From NCBI GenBank assembly GCA_964530955.1, contig CAZHCL010000002.1, positions 7,412-71,411 of the forward strand: a stretch of 64,000 nucleotides of DNA, given 5' to 3'. The stretch comes from Candidatus Woesearchaeota archaeon (GTDB taxonomy: Archaea; Nanobdellota; Nanobdellia; Pacearchaeales; GW2011-AR1). The notes under the pieces are model-generated. The model had not been told where the DNA came from. It made no database searches and was given only the letters and a program-made list of their open reading frames with translations. This document shows, one piece after another, positions 17,283 through 26,957 of this stretch; within the stretch, counting starts at the first letter, position 1, and each line of letters opens with the position of its first letter. A program made the translations under genes and the position numbers.

Positions 17283-17364
17283 CGCCCAGACCAGGAGTCG
17301 AACCTGGAAATCCTTGCGGAAACGCGATTTCGAGTCGCGCGGAGTACCGTTGTCCCATCTGGGC
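17283..17364 (-). tRNA. tRNA-Ser (anticodon CGA), type II with long variable arm
   Basis: Manual fold: acceptor GCCCAGA/TCTGGGC, anticodon stem CGCGA/TCGCG, loop CTCGAAA, variable arm TTTCCGCAAGGAT.., T-arm CCAGG-TTCGACT-CCTGG, discriminator G. Confidence 0.9.
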
Positions 17365-19412: not shown

Positions 19413-20732
19413 TTAGTCCTGAGGAACTTTTATAAATTCTTTTGGATGAAACCCTGATTTTCTAAGATCTACCGAATCAACAAAAGATTTGTAAGAGTCT
19501 ACAATGCCATTCAAAGAAAAATATTTTCTGATTTCCCTAACTCTTGCTTGACTTCCAAAGATAGCTCTGCTTACTTCATAGTTAGTTCTCCCTTCAACCT
19601 GAAAATCAGAGTCTATCTGTTTGCCAACGAAATAAAGCAAGGGCGTGCCTCCAAGCTTGAAACCTTGAAATATAGGATCCATCCTCATTTTATGAAGTAT
19701 TGTTCCTAAAGGTTCTCTGCCAACATTGCCGTAAGAGCTCTCCCTCCCAAATATTCCCTTGCAATCACTAAAGTGGACTTCCCCATTATGAAAGACATAG
19801 AAATCAGAGACTGGTTCATGTTCGATAAGAATATCTCCCAGGTCTAATTTTTTCCTAGGCATTATTCTTTCAAACAAAGGCAGATTTGCTGCTCGTCCGT
19901 AGGGTTCAACTTGTCCTATTGAAATTCTCATAGGACTTGGATTATATTCCACAATTTCTCCGTTTGCCAACTTAAACCCTCTTGATGGATAAACATATAC
20001 TGCATCTTCTATTCCCAATTTTCCCATTCTTTCACTTCTTCTTTTTCCAAATGATTCATTTATGGTAAGAATTAGCTCATTAACTCTCCTCACTGTGTCC
20101 TTTATCTCTCCTAACCCTATAAAATTATAATAAACATTCAAACCTAAATCCTCAAATGGGTAAACTACCTTCAGAGCATCATTAATAAACCTGAAATTAT
20201 CTTGTGTTGTAGGATACATTCTTCCGAAACTTATGCAAAGATTGTTTGACTTTCTAGATAAATCAAAACCTTTTTCTTTTAAAAAGTTCACCCAAGCAAG
20301 AGCATCACTATAATTAGAAGCAAAAGTTCCATTTGTAACAACATTAATTTTAATGAATTCTGAATAATTCACCGCGGAAGCCACCGCGTCCCTATTCTCT
20401 TCTCTTAATGGTTCTCCACTGGTTAGACATGCTTTCAATACTCCTGCGTGTATAGCTCCACCCATAGCCCTCTGAATAATATCTGGACTTGGCAATCCTT
20501 TTCTGTCTGGTCCGCATTCATCTAGACAATGAAAACATTTCAAGTTGCAATTTGGTCCCATTTCTAGAAGCATAGTGTATAAATCGTAGTCAAATAACCT
20601 TTTATGAATAAAATCATTCGTTCTTAAATAAGAAGGAGTCTTTCTAGCTTTTTCAACTGCTTTGCAAGTTTCGGTCTCAATCATTTTAGTCTCAGAAGTC
20701 GCTGAGGTCGAATCACCCTCAAAAATAAGCAT
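19413..20732 (-). CDS. Radical SAM domain protein, function unknown
   Basis: GPNCNLKCFHCLDEC contains CxxxCxxC and is followed by TSGEPL (SAM-binding GGE-like). The long C-terminal region has no SPASM-type Cys clusters. Confidence 0.8.
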   Translation of the reverse strand: MLIFEGDSTSATSETKMIETETCKAVEKARKTPSYLRTNDFIHKRLFDYDLYTMLLEMGPNCNLKCFHCLDECGPDRKGLPSPDIIQRAMGGAIHAGVLKACLTSGEPLREENRDAVASAVNYSEFIKINVVTNGTFASNYSDALAWVNFLKEKGFDLSRKSNNLCISFGRMYPTTQDNFRFINDALKVVYPFEDLGLNVYYNFIGLGEIKDTVRRVNELILTINESFGKRRSERMGKLGIEDAVYVYPSRGFKLANGEIVEYNPSPMRISIGQVEPYGRAANLPLFERIMPRKKLDLGDILIEHEPVSDFYVFHNGEVHFSDCKGIFGRESSYGNVGREPLGTILHKMRMDPIFQGFKLGGTPLLYFVGKQIDSDFQVEGRTNYEVSRAIFGSQARVREIRKYFSLNGIVDSYKSFVDSVDLRKSGFHPKEFIKVPQD

Positions 20733-20777
20733 AAATTATACTATAAAAACATTTGTTTAACGTTAAAAAGATAAAAA

Positions 20778-20859
20778 CGCTAGCGGCAGGAATTGAACCT
20801 GCATATCCTTGCGGAAACTTGCTCTCCAAGCAAGCGAGCTACCACTGCTCAACGCCAGC
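20778..20859 (-). tRNA. tRNA-Ser (anticodon GGA), type II
   Basis: Manual fold: acceptor GCTGGCG/CGCTAGC (one G-U), anticodon stem CTTGC/GCAAG, loop TTGGAGA, long variable arm, T-loop TTCAATT, discriminator G. Confidence 0.9.
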
Positions 20860-20903
20860 ATATTAAATTAGTCATAAAAAATGATTATAAACCTAACGAT
20901 TAT

Positions 20904-21587
20904 TCAAAAAAGGCTATTAATTACATGCTCATAAATTTCTTCAGAAATATCTTCTCTTTTTCTTAATGAGCTTAATGTTTTATCAGGTGCACAATCCACT
21001 CTAGTCCAATTAAATCTCTCTGAAAGTTCTAAATAAGATTGTTCTGCATTTCTCAAATGAGAGGGATTAGATTCATGCCCATCCGCTTCTCCTACCCTAC
21101 CTTTTCTCAACTCAATAGCAACTTCAAGAGGCATATAAAGAAAGAATACCTTATCTGGTCTGGGAAGTCCAAAATTGCCATATTCTAATTCTTCCAACCA
21201 AGAAACAAAGTTTGACCTTTCATCCTTATCGGCAATTTTTCCTCCCTGATGCCCCATATTAGATTCAACGTATCTATTCAAAAATAAATTATTTCCTTTA
21301 GAGACTATTGCTTCCATATCCTTAATAGAAGCATATCTGTCAACAGCATATAAGCAAGATGCAATTTTCGGATTTACATTATTAGAAGGTCCAAACTCTT
21401 GAGTGTAAGGCTGCTTTCCCAAATATCTCCTAAGAAGATTACCAGTAGGAGTATCATATCTAGGGAAACTCATTACTTCAGAAGAGATACCTTCAGAATT
21501 CAGTCTCGCAACAATAAGATTAGCCTGAGTTTCTTTGCCAGAAGCATCAGTTCCCTCAATAACAAATATTTTTCCCTTTTTTATCAT
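20904..21587 (-). CDS. tmk: Thymidylate (dTMP) kinase
   Basis: FVIEGTDASGKETQ P-loop and SFPRYDTPTGNLLRRYL. ATGA overlap with the DHFR stop. Confidence 0.9.
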   Translation of the reverse strand: MIKKGKIFVIEGTDASGKETQANLIVARLNSEGISSEVMSFPRYDTPTGNLLRRYLGKQPYTQEFGPSNNVNPKIASCLYAVDRYASIKDMEAIVSKGNNLFLNRYVESNMGHQGGKIADKDERSNFVSWLEELEYGNFGLPRPDKVFFLYMPLEVAIELRKGRVGEADGHESNPSHLRNAEQSYLELSERFNWTRVDCAPDKTLSSLRKREDISEEIYEHVINSLF

Positions 21588-22096
21588 GGCCTATTTTTAT
21601 GTACATAAGTGACGAAATCAAAATACTCTTTTCTTTCCCTTGATAATTGAGTCCATTCAGCTCTATCCCAATCTGGGAATAAAGCATCTCCCTCATACTC
21701 TCTATGAACTTCCGTTAATTCCATCAATCCGGCATACTTCAAGCCATCCGCATAAACTTGCTGACCGCCAATTAAGTAAATATCCCTTTCTCCCTCTTGT
21801 CTATAAGCAAGTTCTAATGCATCAATAAGAGAAGGAGCCTTAAGAACACCTTCTGGAACATTATAACTTGCTCTGTTAGTTAAAACAATGTTCAATCTAT
21901 TTTTAAGAGGACCATTTGGAAAAGACTCATAAGTGTTTCTTCCCATTACAACTATATTTCCAGTTGTTAATTCTTTAAAACGCAACATATCAGGTCTAAA
22001 AAGTTCCCTTTCTTGAGGAGAACTCCAAGGCAATTTACCATTTATTCCTATGACTCCATTTTTTGCAACTGCCGCAATTATACTTATTTCTCCCAT
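21584..22096 (-). CDS. folA: Dihydrofolate reductase
   Basis: ISIIAAVAKNGVIGINGKLPW, VVMGRNTYESFP, YLIGGQQVY. Confidence 0.85.
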   Translation of the reverse strand: MGEISIIAAVAKNGVIGINGKLPWSSPQERELFRPDMLRFKELTTGNIVVMGRNTYESFPNGPLKNRLNIVLTNRASYNVPEGVLKAPSLIDALELAYRQEGERDIYLIGGQQVYADGLKYAGLMELTEVHREYEGDALFPDWDRAEWTQLSRERKEYFDFVTYVHKNRP

Positions 22097-22097
22097 T

Positions 22098-23237
22098 TTA
22101 TGCAGCCATTACTGCTCGGCAATCCCATTTAATTGGTTCATATCCTGAAATACTTATTACTTCCTTAGCAGGCATTTCAATCATTTGAAATAAATGCAAA
22201 TCTTTCATTTGAAGATGAGGCAAGCTTCTGGGTTCTTTTGACAACTGCTCCAACACAAAAGGAACATGATCTTTCCTTTCATTACCCTCACTTTCAGCAG
22301 GAGCATGTTTTAGATACCATTCTCTAATATCAAGATAATCCTCAGGTTTTCCAGCCATCTTGACTTTTCTCTGCAGTTTAGATAAATTATCCTCTACTCT
22401 TAAGAAATCTGTTCTTGGAGCAACCCCATTATAAATATGTAAATTGCTATAGGTATGATAAAAACCTAATGGATTTAAACCAGTCTCTCTTGCAATCATA
22501 TTAGTAAATAAAGCATACTGAGCAATATTGAAAGGAACACCCAAAAATAAATCACAAGACCTCTGAAACATATGTGCTTCTAAATCCTTATCCCTAGTAA
22601 CAGTAAAATGTACCATTGGATGGCAGGGTTTTATCGCCATTTCATCAATTTCCGCCACATTCCATGCATTAATAACATGATATCTTGAACCGGGATCTTT
22701 CTTTATTCCAGCTATCACTTTTTTAATCTGATCAACTGTTTCTCCATTATACTTTTTCCAACGTCTCCACTGTTGCCCATAAATAGGACCTAAAGTAGAA
22801 TCGTTCTTGTCAAATCTTTCTTCATGAAATAATTTTTGCTGCGAACCTTTAACTTCTAGCCCAGAATTAAATCTCCTATCATCTTTCATTGCCGATTCAT
22901 AAGTTTCAAAAAGCTGATTCCATAAATGAGTATTCTTTTTTACCTGTTTATTCAGACCCATTCTGTCTAAATAATGCTGAAAAGCATTTCTATTCCAGAT
23001 ATTAACCCCTCTTAAATTCAAGCTATAATCATCCGTTTCTCCCCTAAACATCCAAAATAGTTCTTCTCCTACCCATCTCATCTGAACCGGCTTTGTAGTA
23101 AGTAATGGGAACCCTTGGGAAAAATCAAAATAAGATTGATCACCGCTCTTAACAATCATGAACTGCTCTGTTCTCTCATTATACTGTGGCTTGCCCTCTG
23201 ATAAAACCCTTTTTAATAATCCTAGATATTGTTCCAT
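22098..23237 (-). CDS. thyA: Thymidylate synthase ThyA family, unusually long (about 379 aa) with internal insertions
   Basis: MEQYLGLLKRVL, LGPIYGQQWRRW, AIKPCHPMVHF (catalytic Cys), RSCDLFLGVPFNIAQYALFTNMIA. I prefer the ATG at 23237; the track start at 23249 is TTG. Confidence 0.9.
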   Translation of the reverse strand: MEQYLGLLKRVLSEGKPQYNERTEQFMIVKSGDQSYFDFSQGFPLLTTKPVQMRWVGEELFWMFRGETDDYSLNLRGVNIWNRNAFQHYLDRMGLNKQVKKNTHLWNQLFETYESAMKDDRRFNSGLEVKGSQQKLFHEERFDKNDSTLGPIYGQQWRRWKKYNGETVDQIKKVIAGIKKDPGSRYHVINAWNVAEIDEMAIKPCHPMVHFTVTRDKDLEAHMFQRSCDLFLGVPFNIAQYALFTNMIARETGLNPLGFYHTYSNLHIYNGVAPRTDFLRVEDNLSKLQRKVKMAGKPEDYLDIREWYLKHAPAESEGNERKDHVPFVLEQLSKEPRSLPHLQMKDLHLFQMIEMPAKEVISISGYEPIKWDCRAVMAA

Positions 23238-23285
23238 ATTTAATTCCAAACAAAATGCTATATAAACAAATATATTCTGGAAAAT

Positions 23286-23900
23286 CTATTTCGAAAGTAA
23301 AATCTGCTTGACAACCGGCCAGGCAATTTTGGACCACTCCTCAAGATTATTTTTTGGATCTGCAACTAATTGTTCAAACTCAGGTACAGTATAAAACTTG
23401 CATCCCACCATTTCATCATCGCCCTTTTCTACTTTGCCTGTCGTCTCTACCAAAGCAGCAATACCGAAATGAACCTTTTCAACTTCACCTTTAGTATCAT
23501 CGTTGATATACCCTATTATTCTTGGTTTTTGGGGTCTTTCCATTCTAACTTCCTCCGCCAATTCTCTATCCATTCCAGATTCAATAGGATTGCTTCCATC
23601 CTGTCTTTCAACATGCCCTCCGACCCCTATGCTGATTTTGCTTCTAAGTCTTTCCTCAGAATAACTCTTATCTGCTCTTTTATATGCTAAAATAGTATGG
23701 TCGACAGGATTAATAATCATAACATAAGGGATAATTTGTTTCAAAGATATATCTCTTTCAAGAGCATCTCCTCTCTCGTGATAAGAATAATTTTGTAATA
23801 TCAAAGGAAGATAGTCATATTCTCCAGCACTAAGAAAACCATTAAAACTCCTTTCTCTGAACAAGTCTTCTCTCTTAACAACAAGTGCTTCCTTCGGCAT
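23286..23900 (-). CDS. Nudix-fold phosphoesterase (COG4112/MutT-like)
   Basis: GVGGHVERQDGSNPIESGMDRELAEEV approximates the Nudix box. The N-terminal VVKREDLF..GF region is typical of COG4112-type proteins. Confidence 0.7.
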   Translation of the reverse strand: MPKEALVVKREDLFRERSFNGFLSAGEYDYLPLILQNYSYHERGDALERDISLKQIIPYVMIINPVDHTILAYKRADKSYSEERLRSKISIGVGGHVERQDGSNPIESGMDRELAEEVRMERPQKPRIIGYINDDTKGEVEKVHFGIAALVETTGKVEKGDDEMVGCKFYTVPEFEQLVADPKNNLEEWSKIAWPVVKQILLSK

Positions 23901-23920
23901 CCATAATTCTGTTCGGCAGG

Positions 23921-23930
23921 TTATTTAAAG
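23921..23930. promoter_or_regulatory. Shared TATA element of a bidirectional promoter (TTATTTAAAG)
   Basis: Lies exactly 20 nt from the ATG at 23900 (minus) and 20 nt from the ATG at 23951 (plus), within a 50-bp intergenic region. Confidence 0.45.
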
Positions 23931-23950
23931 ATTTATATTCTAATTAAGAT

Positions 23951-24871
23951 ATGAGTCAAATGTATCAGCAAAAAATGGAAGAAGAGTTCTTTAAATTTAT
24001 TTACAAAAGACAATTAATCTGGTACAAGAGGTTTGTCTTACATGAAAAGCAGCCCTGGACAGAAGATGATGTTCTAGGAAAGTACAAAATAATAAATGTC
24101 TATAGAGAACTAGATAAATGCACGATTTATGCAATTGAAAAGTTTAAAGATATTAAAAACAGAGAAAAACTCTTTCTGAATATTGTTTTTTATAGATTCT
24201 TTAATCAAACAAATTTATATGAAAAGATTGGAATTGAACCTTTTTCAGAAATAGATGATAAATTAAAGGATAAAATAATAGACTCATTTGAAAATCTTAA
24301 AAGAAAAGGATATCCTATTTTCAACAATGCTTATCTAATCTCTTCTGGAACTGCTGGACAAAAGAAGCATGTCAGCATAATTAGTAATCTGCAGAGATTA
24401 AAGTTAAAAGAGCTAGTGGATGAAATAGACAAATGCAAATCTCCAGAAGAATCTCTTGCAATTATCCAAAAAATACCTATGGTTGGACCTTTTCTAGCCT
24501 GCGAAATATGGACTGACCTAACCTATTTCAATTTTTTCAAGCAAGAATGGAATGATAATGATTTTGTAAATGTTGGACCAGGAGCCAAATGGGGATTGGA
24601 AATAATTTTTAACAGTCCTCTTAGCAAAAAAGAGCAAAAAGAGCATCTTTCTAAGTTGTATGAGCTTCAGAAAGATTATCTGAAAAATATAAATGAAAAA
24701 ATTAAGGAACCTTTAAAATGGAAAGATATTGCTTTCAAAAAAGCATATTCAAATTATCCATTTCTTTCTATAACTAACATTGAAGGAGCATTATGTGAAT
24801 TCAGAAAGTATTGGAATATAAGTCACGGAAAAGGAAGAAGAAAGTATTTTCACCCTATAGATTATAAGTAA
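23951..24871 (+). CDS. Alpha-glutamyl/putrescinyl-thymine pyrophosphorylase-like (aGPT-Pplase family; DNA base hypermodification protein-like)
   Basis: The N-terminal FIYKRQLIWYKRFVLHEKQPWTEDDVLGKYKIINVYRELDKCT matches my recollection of the family signature (er..I..rR......PWT.D.iL..y.F.NvyRelDr.T). Not verified by search. Confidence 0.55.
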   Translation: MSQMYQQKMEEEFFKFIYKRQLIWYKRFVLHEKQPWTEDDVLGKYKIINVYRELDKCTIYAIEKFKDIKNREKLFLNIVFYRFFNQTNLYEKIGIEPFSEIDDKLKDKIIDSFENLKRKGYPIFNNAYLISSGTAGQKKHVSIISNLQRLKLKELVDEIDKCKSPEESLAIIQKIPMVGPFLACEIWTDLTYFNFFKQEWNDNDFVNVGPGAKWGLEIIFNSPLSKKEQKEHLSKLYELQKDYLKNINEKIKEPLKWKDIAFKKAYSNYPFLSITNIEGALCEFRKYWNISHGKGRRKYFHPIDYK

Positions 24872-25181
24872 TAGAAGAACTTCTTAGCATCAAATTTTCT
24901 GTAGAAACAGATAATTTAGTTTGTCTCAAATATGCTTCAAATTCTGTAATCGCCTTTGTCTCTACACTTCTTCGAGCCAATTGATCTTGAATAGTCTTGA
25001 CCTTAACCACAAAAGTCAAACCAGAATGATATTTAGTAATCTGAGGAAGAAATGCATTCAAAGCCAAATCAAGATTCAGCATATCTTCCTGAGCGAGAGA
25101 ATAACTTCCTCTTTCAATTGCAGGTTTTACCGTTTCTCTCCAGCCAATTTCTATCTCGGTCAAAACAGCAGATAAATCCAT
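24855..25181 (-). CDS. Hypothetical protein
   Basis: ORF downstream of rps10. Its 3' end overlaps the convergent gene by 17 nt. Confidence 0.45.
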   Translation of the reverse strand: MDLSAVLTEIEIGWRETVKPAIERGSYSLAQEDMLNLDLALNAFLPQITKYHSGLTFVVKVKTIQDQLARRSVETKAITEFEAYLRQTKLSVSTENLMLRSSSITYNL

Positions 25182-25220
25182 AAAAAACCTATAAGAAAAG
25201 CATATTTAACTCTTTCCAAC

Positions 25221-25529
25221 TTAATCTTTCATTTCAATCTTAATCTGAACAGATCTTGGAATCTGAAGCTTCATGATAGGATGCAAAACTCTGTCTTCAG
25301 CAGGTATGTCAATTATCCTTCTATGAACTCTCATCTCAAACCTGTCAAAAGTAGCAGTTCCATTTCCACATGGAGATTTTCTTGTGGTAACTTTAAGATG
25401 CCTTGTTGGAAGTGGAATAGGACCCCTCATTAAAACACCTGCTCTTTCAGTAATTTCTTTTATTGAAGCTATAACTGGATTCAATGCATTTATGTCAATG
25501 CTCCCCAACTTTATTCTTACTTTAGCCAT
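25221..25529 (-). CDS. rps10: 30S ribosomal protein S10 (uS10)
   Basis: VRIKLGSIDINALNPV...MRGPIPLPTRHLKVTTRKSPCGNGTATFDRFEMRVHRRIIDI. Confidence 0.95.
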   Translation of the reverse strand: MAKVRIKLGSIDINALNPVIASIKEITERAGVLMRGPIPLPTRHLKVTTRKSPCGNGTATFDRFEMRVHRRIIDIPAEDRVLHPIMKLQIPRSVQIKIEMKD

Positions 25530-25775
25530 TCTGAATGGAAAGAAAAATGCTTTTTAAACCTTATGTTAAAAATGATTTTCGAGTAATCTTAGATTATTCA
25601 ATTTAAAAACAAAAGATAGTACATAAGATTTAAATAGGCTGTTTGACAATTTTATCCATAGAAAGAAAAGTTAAGAGATTAACTAAATTTCATATTCACG
25701 CCCGTGTGGGGCATAGTTTGTTTGATGACTTTCTTTCTAAAAGAATAAGGAAATAGATTTCCTTTAATACATAAA

Positions 25776-26957
25776 ATGGCAAAAGTAAGTCCAGTATCAA
25801 TAAAATATATGATACATGCGTCGTTCAAGGCCGAAGGTCCTTTAGAAAAACCCGATGTAATCGGAGCTATATTCGGGCAGACAGAGGGATTGTTAGGTTC
25901 TGAACTTGAAATGCGCGAATTACAAAAAGAAGGCAAGATAGGCAGAATAGAAGTCAATCTTGAGACAGTTGATGGCAAGAGCGTAGGAGATATTTTAGTC
26001 CCAACAGCCCTTGATAAGAGTGAAACAACCATAATCGCAGCAGCTCTTGAAACAATTGATAGAATAGGTCCTACTGAAGCTTCAATCCAGGTATCAAAGA
26101 TAGAAGACGTAAGAGGAAGCAAAAGAGATTTCATAATAGAAAGAGCAAAGAAACTTCTTGAAGGGCTTGACGGAAACAGCGATTTCGAGGATATGTCAAA
26201 AACACTTAAAGAAGAATCAAGAGCAGCCAAAATAATGGAGTACGGAGATGAGAAACTCCCAGCAGGAGATTTATCAGGAAATGAAATAATAGTAGTTGAG
26301 GGTAGAGCAGATGTAGTTAATCTTCTTAAAAACAGAGTAAACAATGTCATAGGCATGAACGGGACTAAGTTGCCTGCAGAAATAGCAAAACTAGGAAGTA
26401 CAAAGGAAATTACCTTATTTGTTGATGGAGACAGAGGCGGAAAACTTATAGCAAAGAACGTCATAAGTAATGCTAACATAAAATATGTGGCCGTAGCTCC
26501 AGATGGAAAAGAAGTTGAAGAATTAGCAGGTAAGGAAATATTGATTTCATTAAGAAAAAGAATTAGCGTATCTGAATTTATCAGAAAGGCAGACAGCAAT
26601 GGATACAGCAATGGAAATGGATATTCCCCTGCCCCAAAAGAAACTCCTCAGGAACCAGTTAAAGAAGAGTATAAGGGAGATGTAAAAGAAGCTCTAAGAA
26701 AATCCTACGAAGAAAAGATCAAGGGAAGTAAGAATGCTCTACTTTTAGATGGAAGCCTTGATGTCATAAGAAAAGTAAGTTCGAGAGAAGTTGGAAAAAG
26801 CTTGGATATGTCAAGACAGAAAGTCTTTGCAGTGATAGTCGATGGAGCTGCAACATCAGGAATAGTCAGAGCATGCGATGATTACAATGTTAGATATCTT
26901 GCTGCTACAACTTTCTCAGCAACCGAAGGCGCGAAAGTCAATTTAATTAGTCTTTAA
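25776..26957 (+). CDS. dnaG: Archaeal DnaG-type primase (Toprim domain)
   Basis: [32 protein letters not shown], Toprim [13 protein letters not shown] ... LFVDGDRGG. Confidence 0.9.

Follow-up and report, generated by a model that had tools for sequence, protein, structure and literature searches.

What does a relative of phage thymidine-hypermodification genes do in an archaeal chromosome, beside genes for thymidylate synthesis? The question is raised by a 64-kb stretch of DNA (the window; contig CAZHCL010000002.1 of the Candidatus Woesearchaeota archaeon assembly GCA_964530955.1), in which a gene for a 306-aa protein diverges from a Nudix-fold gene that is followed by thyA, folA and tmk. 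On the strength of its N-terminus, the initial annotation had placed the protein in the alpha-glutamyl/putrescinyl-thymine pyrophosphorylase (aGPT-Pplase) family and had proposed either DNA base modification or a role in pyrimidine salvage. Our analysis identifies the protein as a stand-alone member of the Pfam family PF18723 (HMUDK_hel) and tips, by a small degree, towards a cellular enzyme of this family whose role would lie in the supply, salvage or quality control of thymidylate.

Family, fold and cellular setting of the 306-aa protein

The 306-aa protein matched PF18723 with 170.4 bits (cut-off 25; E = 6.8e-50), residues 9-294 aligning with model positions 3-278 of 281, and its membership of this family is practically certain. 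No other Pfam family was matched even at E ≤ 10, including PF18724 (ADDT) and Pplase1; no NCBIfam model matched the protein, and a PDB sequence search with the family profile returned nothing. The AlphaFold2 (AF2) model, with a predicted local distance difference test score (pLDDT) of 94.1, is all-helical. When this model was compared with BFVD using Foldseek, the best match was the 637-aa 5-hydroxymethyldeoxyuridine (5-hmdU) DNA kinase fusion of SP10 (E = 1e-10, TMq 0.80), with further matches to phiRSL1 (TMq 0.79), PhiW-14 (TMq 0.70) and other stand-alone PF18723 proteins, followed by aGPT-Pplase1 (E = 2e-4), amino-acid:DNA transferases (E = 1e-2) and helix-hairpin-helix (HhH) glycosylases. 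Against the PDB, PaMx11 gp46/PUGT (8z2m) ranked first (probability 0.94, TM-score 0.41–0.43), and the glycosylases AGOG and AlkA were among the next few matches, all of which had weak scores (TM 0.28–0.42 for the glycosylases). By its modelled fold, the protein belongs to the aGPT-Pplase/HhH-glycosylase-like group.

Lee et al. (2018) reported two aG/PT-PPlase paralogues per phage and described SP10 gp186 as a kinase-Pplase fusion; one of the paralogues (aGPT-Pplase2, now PF18724 ADDT) is a transferase (PMC8989533). PF18723 is the second paralogue of this phage group and not the amino-acid:DNA transferase clade. The initial annotation had thus named the right protein group, as borne out by the full-length PF18723 match and the structural matches, but its assignment does not extend to the transferase clade, to which no match was obtained. 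Relatives with ~25% identity were recovered by tblastn in 157 phage records, those listed including M6/YuA/PaMx11-like Pseudomonas phages, SP10, SH-Ab 15599 and many Salmonella and Dickeya phages, groups that we take to be thymidine-hypermodifying. The whole family comprises ~4,300 clusters at 50% identity (E ≤ 1e-3). A search for domain fusions among 150 family representatives found no Pfam domain in the extra regions of the longer proteins (P0125, P0129, P0246 and others). Extensions of 230–300 aa are present in P0125 (600 aa), P0129 (531 aa) and P0246 (528 aa), and that of P0129 carries an HELGH motif resembling a metallopeptidase signature.

The setting is cellular and non-prophage, as first annotated. 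Genes for S10, DnaG, MsrB, S9/L13 and apparent aminoacyl-tRNA synthetases (judged by size and sequence) surround the locus, and the window, at ~34–35% GC and with its ribosomal proteins, DnaG and MsrB, has the look of an ordinary DPANN chromosome. No phage structural genes were seen in its 64 kb, which also code an integrase-family (Phage_integrase) gene. The nearest named relatives of the 306-aa protein come from Pacearchaeota, Woesearchaeota and Nanoarchaeota metagenome-assembled genomes (MAGs) and then from candidate phyla radiation (CPR) bacteria; on viral contigs of IMG/VR, relatives do not exceed 34% identity, some of them being accompanied by a kinase and/or a hydroxymethylase-type or other thymidylate synthase (TS) homologue. 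The archaeal PF18723 gene is not viral.

The adjoining thymidylate genes

The 379-aa length of the encoded ThyA raised the possibility of a hydroxymethylase, which was ruled out by the TIGR03284 score, the active site, the PDB matches and the coupling to dihydrofolate reductase (DHFR). ThyA scored 260 bits against Pfam and 244 bits against NCBIfam TIGR03284 (cut-off 108), and the ThyA proteins encoded beside PF18723 genes at three other loci of our comparison set (L005, 202 bits; L081, 202 bits; L067, 422 bits) likewise exceeded the cut-off. The PaMx11 dUMP hydroxymethylase gp51 (52.7 bits) and the TS-like protein of DS-4, a defence system of E. coli (43.7 bits), used as controls, both fell below it. 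The check for a dUMP hydroxymethylase suggested by the initial annotation therefore returned a classical synthase instead (244 versus 44–53 bits for hydroxymethylases). ThyA is 34% identical to E. coli ThyA, and in E. coli numbering it keeps the active-site residues R21, E58, W80, Y94, C146, R166, D169, N177, H207 and Y209; its one deviation noted here is Tyr in place of R127 of the DSRR motif. Its identity to gp51 is 24% over 134 aa only, and the best 60 PDB matches listed were all thymidylate synthases. The adjoining DHFR also points to the synthase reaction, because a hydroxymethylase yields no dihydrofolate and only the synthase reaction does. Judged from its sequence, the window ThyA is a bona fide classical thymidylate synthase (EC 2.1.1.45).

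The pairing of thyA with folA is also found in L005, L011 and L067. Tmk gave 76 bits against Pfam and matched the NCBIfam dTMP kinase models below their cut-offs. As in classical thyA-folA(-tmk) operons, ThyA, DHFR and Tmk are ordinary family members encoded by tightly packed genes, and the window differs from such operons in the insertions of ThyA, its Tyr for Arg127 and the sub-threshold NCBIfam scores of Tmk. It is highly probable that these genes form a classical dTMP operon.

The insertions in ThyA are two, of ~50 aa each. The first comes after the IW motif, at a point where the match to the 316-aa L. casei TS continues through, and the second follows the HIY motif and is common to the L005 enzyme (L005:4060-5085). 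In L067, the orthologous slot (L067:1008-1808) encodes a textbook 266-aa ThyA; a replacement of the ThyA gene within a conserved operon frame is suggested.

Recurrent association with thymidylate genes in related genomes

To evaluate the neighbourhood of PF18723 more broadly, we compared 142 loci from GTDB genomes and metagenomes, which fell into 95 groups at 90% identity. The DPANN/CPR set consists of 57 groups with at least 45% identity to the window protein, their genes being called by our own simple open reading frame (ORF) procedure. A gene of deoxynucleoside monophosphate (dNMP) metabolism lay within 2.5 kb of the PF18723 gene in 17 of the 57 groups, usually 6–120 bp off. The neighbours were Tmk and a YfbR-like HD 5'-deoxynucleotidase (seven groups each), ThyA (five), DHFR (four), and CMP-kinase-like and TM1382-like Nudix proteins (two each). 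The arrangements are mutually unrelated (PF18723->thyA->folA; HD->PF18723; tmk->PF18723; PF18723->tmk; and the divergent form of the window), and an unbiased count of Pfam neighbours put the same families on top, together with ThyX. At L075:2595-5864 and L077:2566-5864, a gene for a ThyX of 514–525 aa (Pfam Thy1) forms an apparent thyX-tmk-PF18723 operon on one strand. Because both of the non-homologous synthases, ThyA and ThyX, are linked to the gene, the tie would be to the pathway and not to one protein. A binomial estimate for 17 of 53 loci gave P ~1e-12 to 1e-5 under a null of 3.6–10% per locus, which is our own rough estimate.

Together, these data show that the link to thymidylate genes drawn in the initial annotation is real and recurs in other lineages, both in the 17 groups and at the ThyX loci. 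A functional link between PF18723 and thymidylate metabolism is, on balance, rather probable. A homologue of a 5-hmdU DNA kinase or of a transferase was found by tblastn near the gene in none of the 57 groups.

Two observations concern this wider set. In at least eight Woesearchaeota-type lineages, an 18-bp palindrome, TCTCAAA-N4-TTTGAGA, lies directly upstream of the TATA-like box of the PF18723 gene (sites, as aTCTCAAA-N4-TTTGAGAt, at L004:5938, L007:5941 (=L079), L008:5939 and 8968, L071:510, L076:25, L077:4939, L082:846 and L143:4943). This palindrome is also found upstream of genes for a thymidine kinase (L008:8028-8927), a YfbR-like HD nucleotidase, CMP-kinase-like and AAA_17/18 kinase-like proteins and a few unknown proteins. 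From its distribution it looks like the operator of a deoxynucleotide-salvage regulon; it is absent from the window, including the promoter of the PF18723 gene there. The Pacearchaeota MAG L010 (VGKP01000001.1), compared with window positions 23951-26957, has a DnaG fragment 92% identical to the window DnaG and a PF18723 protein with 51% identity, and no thyA operon lies near its PF18723 gene; the PF18723/thymidylate block has apparently been rearranged or exchanged among close relatives.

A TATA box predicted to serve two divergent genes

We surveyed the promoters of the 61 window genes that have an upstream gap of at least 35 nt. A TTTAWA core was located 20–26 nt from the ATG in 34 of them, with modes at 23 nt (19 genes) and 21 nt (8 genes), and the consensus for the window reads (a)tcTTTAAATA, then 21 nt, then ATG. 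In 27 genes, the distance from the end of the box to the ATG is 21 nt (core +23) or 19 nt (core +21), and the consensus 8-mer TTTAAATA shows the box+21 spacing in 9 of its 15 occurrences. This geometry implies that most transcripts in this organism would be leaderless.

Between the Nudix-fold gene and the PF18723 gene, the 10-mer TTATTTAAAG (23921-23930) stands exactly 20 nt from each of the divergent ATGs and contains a single 8-bp archaeal TATA box. On the minus strand, the box has the exact consensus atcTTTAAATA; its plus-strand reading, TATTTAAA, is the reverse complement of the consensus, with an upstream context (on the side of the B recognition element, BRE) of poorer fit. The distance from core to ATG is 23 nt for the minus-strand gene and 21 nt for the plus-strand gene. 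Elsewhere in the window, divergent pairs are 68–78 bp apart and have two separate TATA boxes each; the gap of 50 bp at this locus is too short for two. L067 and L068, from a lake metagenome, have the Nudix-fold gene, thyA, folA and tmk divergent from the PF18723 gene as in the window. Next to the L067 orthologue (71% protein identity), the 10-mer, the 20+20 nt spacing and the 50-bp gap all recur unchanged, whereas by our own count the 20-mers on either side have only ~48% identity to those of the window. Since 10-mer and spacing were kept while the flanks diverged, the shared box is under constraint.

The thyA gene has a TATA box of its own (TTTATATA), and an equivalent tcTTTAAATA+21 box occupies the same place before thyA of L067. 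The shared box would therefore directly serve the Nudix-fold gene and the gene for the 306-aa protein, and thyA-folA-tmk, which may be reached from it by read-through only, is an at least partly independent unit. The tRNA-Ser(GGA) gene also has its own TTTATA box, ~26 nt upstream. The symmetric promoter described in the initial annotation thus stands, as a single box 20 nt from both ATGs with genome-typical geometry and conservation in L067, but the view that it drives the whole dTMP operon was too strong, given the separate box of thyA. We infer that the two divergent genes are co-regulated from the shared box.

Candidate active site

The 306-aa protein contains an E278-x3-C282-E283 motif and an HhH-like G179-P-F181 segment. 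C282, E283 and E278 are invariant in 42 close relatives, and at least 90% of 136 divergent family members have C282 and E283; PaMx11 gp50 carries EHTLCE. More widely, the family residues R20, R52, D55, F181, G-P-G and C282-E283-x2-K286 are all found in the window protein and are invariant or at least 90% conserved in the 136 divergent members and gp50.

Profile-profile comparison of PF18723 with an ADDT profile built from a 23-sequence alignment gave E-values of 0.036–0.13 over 16–50 columns, and we used the hhalign matches as positional hints only. Two short, weak alignments placed E278..C282 (IEGALCEF) on gp46 E243..C247 (VETILCKW) and G179-P-F181..E185 (VGPFLACEI) on gp46 G144-P-W146..K150 (FGPWIGFKV). 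Accordingly aligned, T244 of the metal-binding Glu/Thr of gp46 is replaced by Gly in the window protein (E278-G-A-L-C282 versus E243-T-I-L-C247), and the position of the co-substrate Lys, K150 (YuA K159), is taken by Glu185, a Glu that is conserved in the family. In gp46 and YuA, these positions comprise the metal-binding Glu/Thr, an essential Cys that attacks C6, a Trp that clamps the flipped base and a Lys that holds the amino acid (PMC11472151, PMC8989533, PMC13458397). It appears that PF18723 retains the residues with which the pyrimidine is activated (Glu, Cys and aromatic clamp), swaps the co-substrate Lys for Glu and adds an invariant Arg, Asp and Asn set of its own. The 306-aa protein is probably catalytic; whether catalysis would proceed by addition of Cys to C6 is an even call.

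Comparison with known systems

The phage members of PF18723 include PaMx11 gp50, the C-terminal domain of SP10 gp186 and PhiW-14 C9DG43, as well as M6 gp55 and ViI gp160 by gene order and Table 3 of Lee et al. (2018). In PaMx11, the genes run in the order gp46 transferase, gp47, gp48, gp49 kinase, gp50 (PF18723), gp51 hydroxymethylase and gp52 YfbR-like HD protein. The phage proteins share with the archaeal one the Pfam family (141 bits for gp50, 170 for the window protein), the fold (TMq 0.68–0.80), common invariant residues including L-C-E and G-x-F, and genes adjoining those of a TS-family enzyme and a YfbR-like HD protein. Identity is only ~25%, however, and the accompanying genes differ: a 5-hmdU DNA kinase, an amino-acid:DNA transferase and a hydroxymethylase-type TS in the phages, and classical ThyA, DHFR and Tmk, with none of those three, in the archaeon.

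The ADDT proteins of PF18724 (PaMx11 gp46/PUGT (8z2m), M6 gp51, ViI gp247 and the Pplase2 proteins of YuA and SH-Ab 15599) resemble the window protein in their all-helical, HhH-containing fold and similar size, and their Glu-x3-Cys near the C-terminus and G-P-aromatic segment align with it in the short, weak matches described above. In contrast to gp46, which itself scores 97 bits, the window protein has no match to the ADDT hidden Markov model; its TM-score is 0.41–0.43 and its hhalign match is not significant. It has Glu for Lys150 of gp46, an extra invariant Glu after the Cys and another Arg/Asp/Asn set, and its locus lacks the kinase that makes the 5-PmdU substrate. The resemblance to HhH DNA glycosylases (AlkA, AGOG, endonuclease III) is a distant one of fold (TM 0.28–0.42) and of HhH-like Gly-Pro hairpins; in these enzymes the catalytic residue is typically an Asp or Lys that follows the HhH motif, whereas the window protein would use its C-terminal Glu-x3-Cys-Glu motif.

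A cellular counterpart is found in DS-4 (NTTI), an E. coli defence system that was validated in the DefensePredictor study and gives phage resistance (PMC13092281). It encodes a TS-like protein, a small P-loop (d)NMP-kinase-like protein, a stand-alone PF18723 protein (180 bits), TIR and Nmad2 (PMC13092281, supplements). The gene for its PF18723 protein, WP_087900470.1, lies between those for the P-loop kinase and TIR, downstream of the TS-like gene (NZ_QOYB01000018.1, 32107-36002). DS-4 and the archaeal locus thus have in common a cellular combination of TS-family, (d)NMP-kinase and stand-alone PF18723 proteins. They differ in that the TS-like protein of DS-4 fails the synthase cut-off, while the archaeal locus has a true ThyA and DHFR among ribosomal and replication genes; no TIR or Nmad2 label was present among the precomputed Pfam labels within ~5–6 kb on either side of the archaeal PF18723 gene.

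A thymidylate-linked role and its alternatives

We favour the reading of the locus as a chromosomal thymidylate module of a DPANN (Pace-/Woesearchaeota-like) archaeon. Its minus strand would encode a TM1382-type Nudix-fold hydrolase and then a packed thyA-folA-tmk unit with its own promoter, predicted to convert dUMP to dTMP in the classical way, to recycle dihydrofolate and to phosphorylate dTMP. The gene for the stand-alone PF18723 protein would diverge from the Nudix-fold gene off the one common TATA box, with leaderless geometry. Most likely, the PF18723 protein would bind or flip a uracil-type pyrimidine and add Cys282 to C6 for chemistry at C5. In DPANN and CPR lineages, the family would have shed every hypermodification partner known from the phages, its members sitting beside ThyA/DHFR, ThyX, Tmk and the YfbR-like 5'-deoxynucleotidase. 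Because of these recurrent thymidylate neighbours and the lack of hypermodification partners, we place the protein in thymidylate supply, salvage or quality control. It would act either on a nucleotide of the dUMP/dTMP type, which may be 5-substituted, or on a base of this kind in DNA, the two being about equally probable. Of the two proposals in the initial annotation, the salvage or thymidylate role fits better than hypermodification.

Several points weigh against this interpretation. No nucleotide-metabolism neighbour lies within 2.5 kb of the PF18723 gene in 40 of the 57 related lineages. In gut Alphaproteobacteria (35–41% identity), the gene precedes an MltB-RlpA-carboxypeptidase-Tmk cluster, a common housekeeping cluster, or adjoins Hsp33/YebC; it is thus cell-wall genes that stand beside it, with Tmk four genes off, and the context is uninformative. 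The residue equivalences to gp46 are weak, resting on short alignments and fold similarity (TM 0.41–0.53). The evidence on substrate class is split, since the relatives of known chemistry act on DNA and the neighbours here on mononucleotides. The absence of partner genes covers the 64-kb window, and a kinase, hydroxymethylase or dioxygenase may be encoded elsewhere in the genome. Finally, no PF18723 protein has a demonstrated biochemical activity, and M6 gp55, the presumed PF18723 paralogue, is dispensable for hypermodification in vitro (PMC8989533).

It is highly improbable that thymine in the archaeon's own DNA undergoes post-replicative modification, with the 306-aa protein as a Pplase-type transferase acting on activated 5-hydroxymethyluracil. 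The DNA transferases do share the fold group of the protein, which keeps the Cys/Glu motif; phage homologues lie inside hypermodification clusters, as in PaMx11 with its gp49 kinase, gp50 and gp51 hydroxymethylase, and some family members are named 'putative DNA base hypermodification protein' by NCBI. Yet the protein matches neither PF18724 nor Pplase1 nor any other Pfam family at the E ≤ 10 threshold, and the position of the amino-acid-binding K150 of gp46 is Glu. In a phmmer search of the PaMx11 gp45-gp53 cluster against all window ORFs, gp50 and, weakly, gp51 were matched and nothing else; gp49, as query for a 5-hmdU DNA kinase (P-loop, PF18748-like), had no match. The window thus contains no HMUDK, transferase or HD homologue, and kinase and transferase are likewise missing near the gene in the 57 related groups. 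ThyA passes an equivalog cut-off that hydroxymethylases fail and is coupled to DHFR, and its counterpart in L067 is of textbook type. The initial annotation had already remarked that neither a 5-hmdU DNA kinase nor a clear dUMP hydroxymethylase was evident in the window, which is borne out, the sole TS homologue being the classical one. It had itself named what would count against base modification, and by that measure the proposal fails: there is no transferase-clade match, there are no partners and the context is one of housekeeping genes. A different use of the phage chemistry would be the formation of thymine, with PF18723 resolving the C5 exocyclic methylene derived from 5-(phospho)hydroxymethyl-uracil to methyl. 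The family would then supply the missing 5-hmdU-to-thymidine activity of PhiW-14-, SP10-, M6- and ViI-type phages, recruited by DPANN, CPR and some gut Alphaproteobacteria, and the locus would encode a salvage or repair route that needs no folate and leads to thymine nucleotides or T in DNA, co-regulated with classical dTMP synthesis. This conversion is explicitly left unexplained in these phages, Lee et al. calling the step unknown (PMC5889632); the PF18723 paralogue accompanies the kinase in PhiW-14-/SP10-type phages and is fused to it in SP10; it is not needed for the hypermodification branch, and borohydride turns the gp51-bound intermediate into thymidine (PMC8989533). Cellular copies, moreover, cluster with enzymes that form and use dTMP, including both synthase types, and thioredoxin genes neighbour the PF18723 gene in two loci. 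We nevertheless consider thymine formation unlikely: no domain for a hydride donor or cofactor is recognisable in the all-helical protein, nor is a 5-HMUDK-type kinase that could activate 5-hydroxymethyluracil (5-hmU) at the cellular loci, a relevant 5-hmdUMP/5-hmU pool in these organisms is without support, and the idea is wholly inferential.

The fold would also accommodate an HhH-glycosylase-type DNA repair enzyme for uracil or oxidised thymine (5-hmU) in DNA. Encoding such an enzyme near thymidylate genes could be explained if both serve to keep U or damaged T low in an AT-rich genome. AGOG and AlkA are the best PDB fold matches after gp46, two HhH-like Gly-Pro segments are present, the relatives of known chemistry flip bases out of duplex DNA (PMC11472151, PMC13458397), and at one locus the neighbours include a methyladenine glycosylase. 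The low glycosylase TM-scores, the C-terminal Glu-x3-Cys-Glu, which is unlike the typical catalytic Asp/Lys of HhH enzymes, and the predominance of free nucleotides and nucleosides as substrates of the neighbours (Tmk, ThyA/ThyX and the HD 5'-deoxynucleotidase, and the thymidine kinase that shares the palindrome) make a repair function doubtful. Very doubtful is a non-catalytic DNA- or nucleotide-binding protein, either an autoregulated factor of the deoxynucleotide-salvage regulon or an accessory factor that delivers substrates to kinases. Such a role would agree with the Pfam description of PF18723 as the 'helical domain' of the kinase, and the palindrome upstream of the gene in at least eight Woesearchaeota-type loci and before salvage genes resembles autoregulation. 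However, the near-universal Cys-Glu, three Arg and Asp/Asn positions, kept down to ~25% identity in phage and cellular proteins, point to an active site, the window's own promoter lacks the palindrome, and no known archaeal regulator has this fold. It is similarly very unlikely that the adjacency is meaningless in this genome, a chance landing with the shared TATA box as a by-product of tight packing. DPANN genomes are compact, the 40 lineages without such a neighbour have already been noted, and L010, so close in its DnaG fragment, has its copy without a nearby thyA. Against chance stand the divergent layout, spacing and 10-mer kept at 71% protein identity while the flanks diverged, the independent ThyA, ThyX, Tmk and HD arrangements across lineages and also in phages and in DS-4, and the rough enrichment P below 1e-5.

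Features of the locus and its surroundings

The coordinates of the locus are collected in Table 1. The gene order, the 1-nt gap between thyA and folA, the 4-nt folA/tmk overlap (ATGA, with the tmk start on the folA stop), the tRNA-Ser(GGA) gene and the 50-bp divergent gap were all confirmed from the ORF listing, Pfam and public gene calls. The thyA ORF listing extends to a TTG at 23249; we used the ATG start of the public calls. An Rfam scan of the window returned tRNAs and nothing else.

Table 1. Features of the PF18723/thymidylate locus (window coordinates)
Feature	Position	Strand	Remarks
tRNA-Ser(GGA)	20777-20860	minus	module boundary, no part in module function
tmk, divergent thymidylate kinase	20904-21587	minus	227 aa; Pfam Thymidylate_kin, 3e-21
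folA, dihydrofolate reductase	21584-22096	minus	170 aa; Pfam DHFR_1, 3.7e-42
thyA, predicted classical thymidylate synthase	22098-23237	minus	379 aa from the ATG of public gene calls
TATA box of thyA	23259-23266	minus	TTTATATA; 21 nt upstream of the thyA ATG
Nudix-fold gene	23286-23900	minus	204 aa; direct divergent partner of the PF18723 gene
Divergent intergenic region	23901-23950		50 bp
Single 8-bp archaeal TATA box	23922-23929	both	plus reads TATTTAAA, minus reads TTTAAATA; 21 nt from both ATGs; inside the 10-mer TTATTTAAAG
Stand-alone PF18723 (HMUDK_hel) gene	23951-24871	plus	306 aa

The Nudix-fold protein matched neither Pfam NUDIX nor any NCBIfam model. It matched the structure of T. 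maritima TM1382 (PDB 3e57, E = 4e-21) and phrog_8902, gave a weak match to a MutT/NUDIX PHROG, and has a likely Nudix box, GGHVERQDGSNPIESGMDRELAEEV. Of its description as a Nudix (COG4112-like) gene, the TM1382-type fold and the Nudix-box-like segment bear out the first part, with no Pfam or NCBIfam match to go with them; the COG4112 label is that of TM1382, and B. subtilis YmaB of the nrd operon is placed in the same group. The window gene shares its fold with TM1382-type proteins and differs from them in having a TATA box in common with a PF18723 gene.

Downstream of the PF18723 gene, a minus-strand ORF of 108 aa (24855-25181) converges on it and overlaps its 3' end by 17 nt. This ORF has no family match; it has its own TTAAATA box 21 nt upstream and a public gene call, and it was seen in the same species only. 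Beyond tmk, the segment 17283-20860 is bounded by tRNA-Ser(CGA) (17283-17364) and tRNA-Ser(GGA) (20777-20860). It encodes a 439-aa radical-SAM protein, two paralogous small ORFs (84 and 97 aa, with the common motif W..GWA..P.C.F...YW..WILNGR), a membrane protein and a small protein, whose copy in L061 is HTH_45. The second strain, L061, has a 246-aa gene in the radical-SAM slot, and the segment is therefore a variable islet. The radical-SAM gene (19413-20732) was considered as a hypermodification partner by analogy with M6 gp53 and was rejected: it lies beyond the tRNA in the strain-variable segment, it is not near the PF18723 gene in other lineages, and its best matches are weak and MoaA-/sactipeptide-maturase-like.

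Implications

Apart from the function of its products, the locus offers a clean and conserved example of one archaeal TATA box that would serve two divergent, predicted-leaderless genes. For the family, PF18723 is the one member of the phage thymidine-hypermodification toolkit that has no assigned reaction, and a cellular subfamily stripped of its hypermodification partners provides a simpler setting in which that reaction could be found. For the organisms themselves, the thymidylate-linked reading suggests that genome-reduced, salvage-dependent symbionts have an undescribed step in the metabolism of pyrimidine deoxynucleotides.

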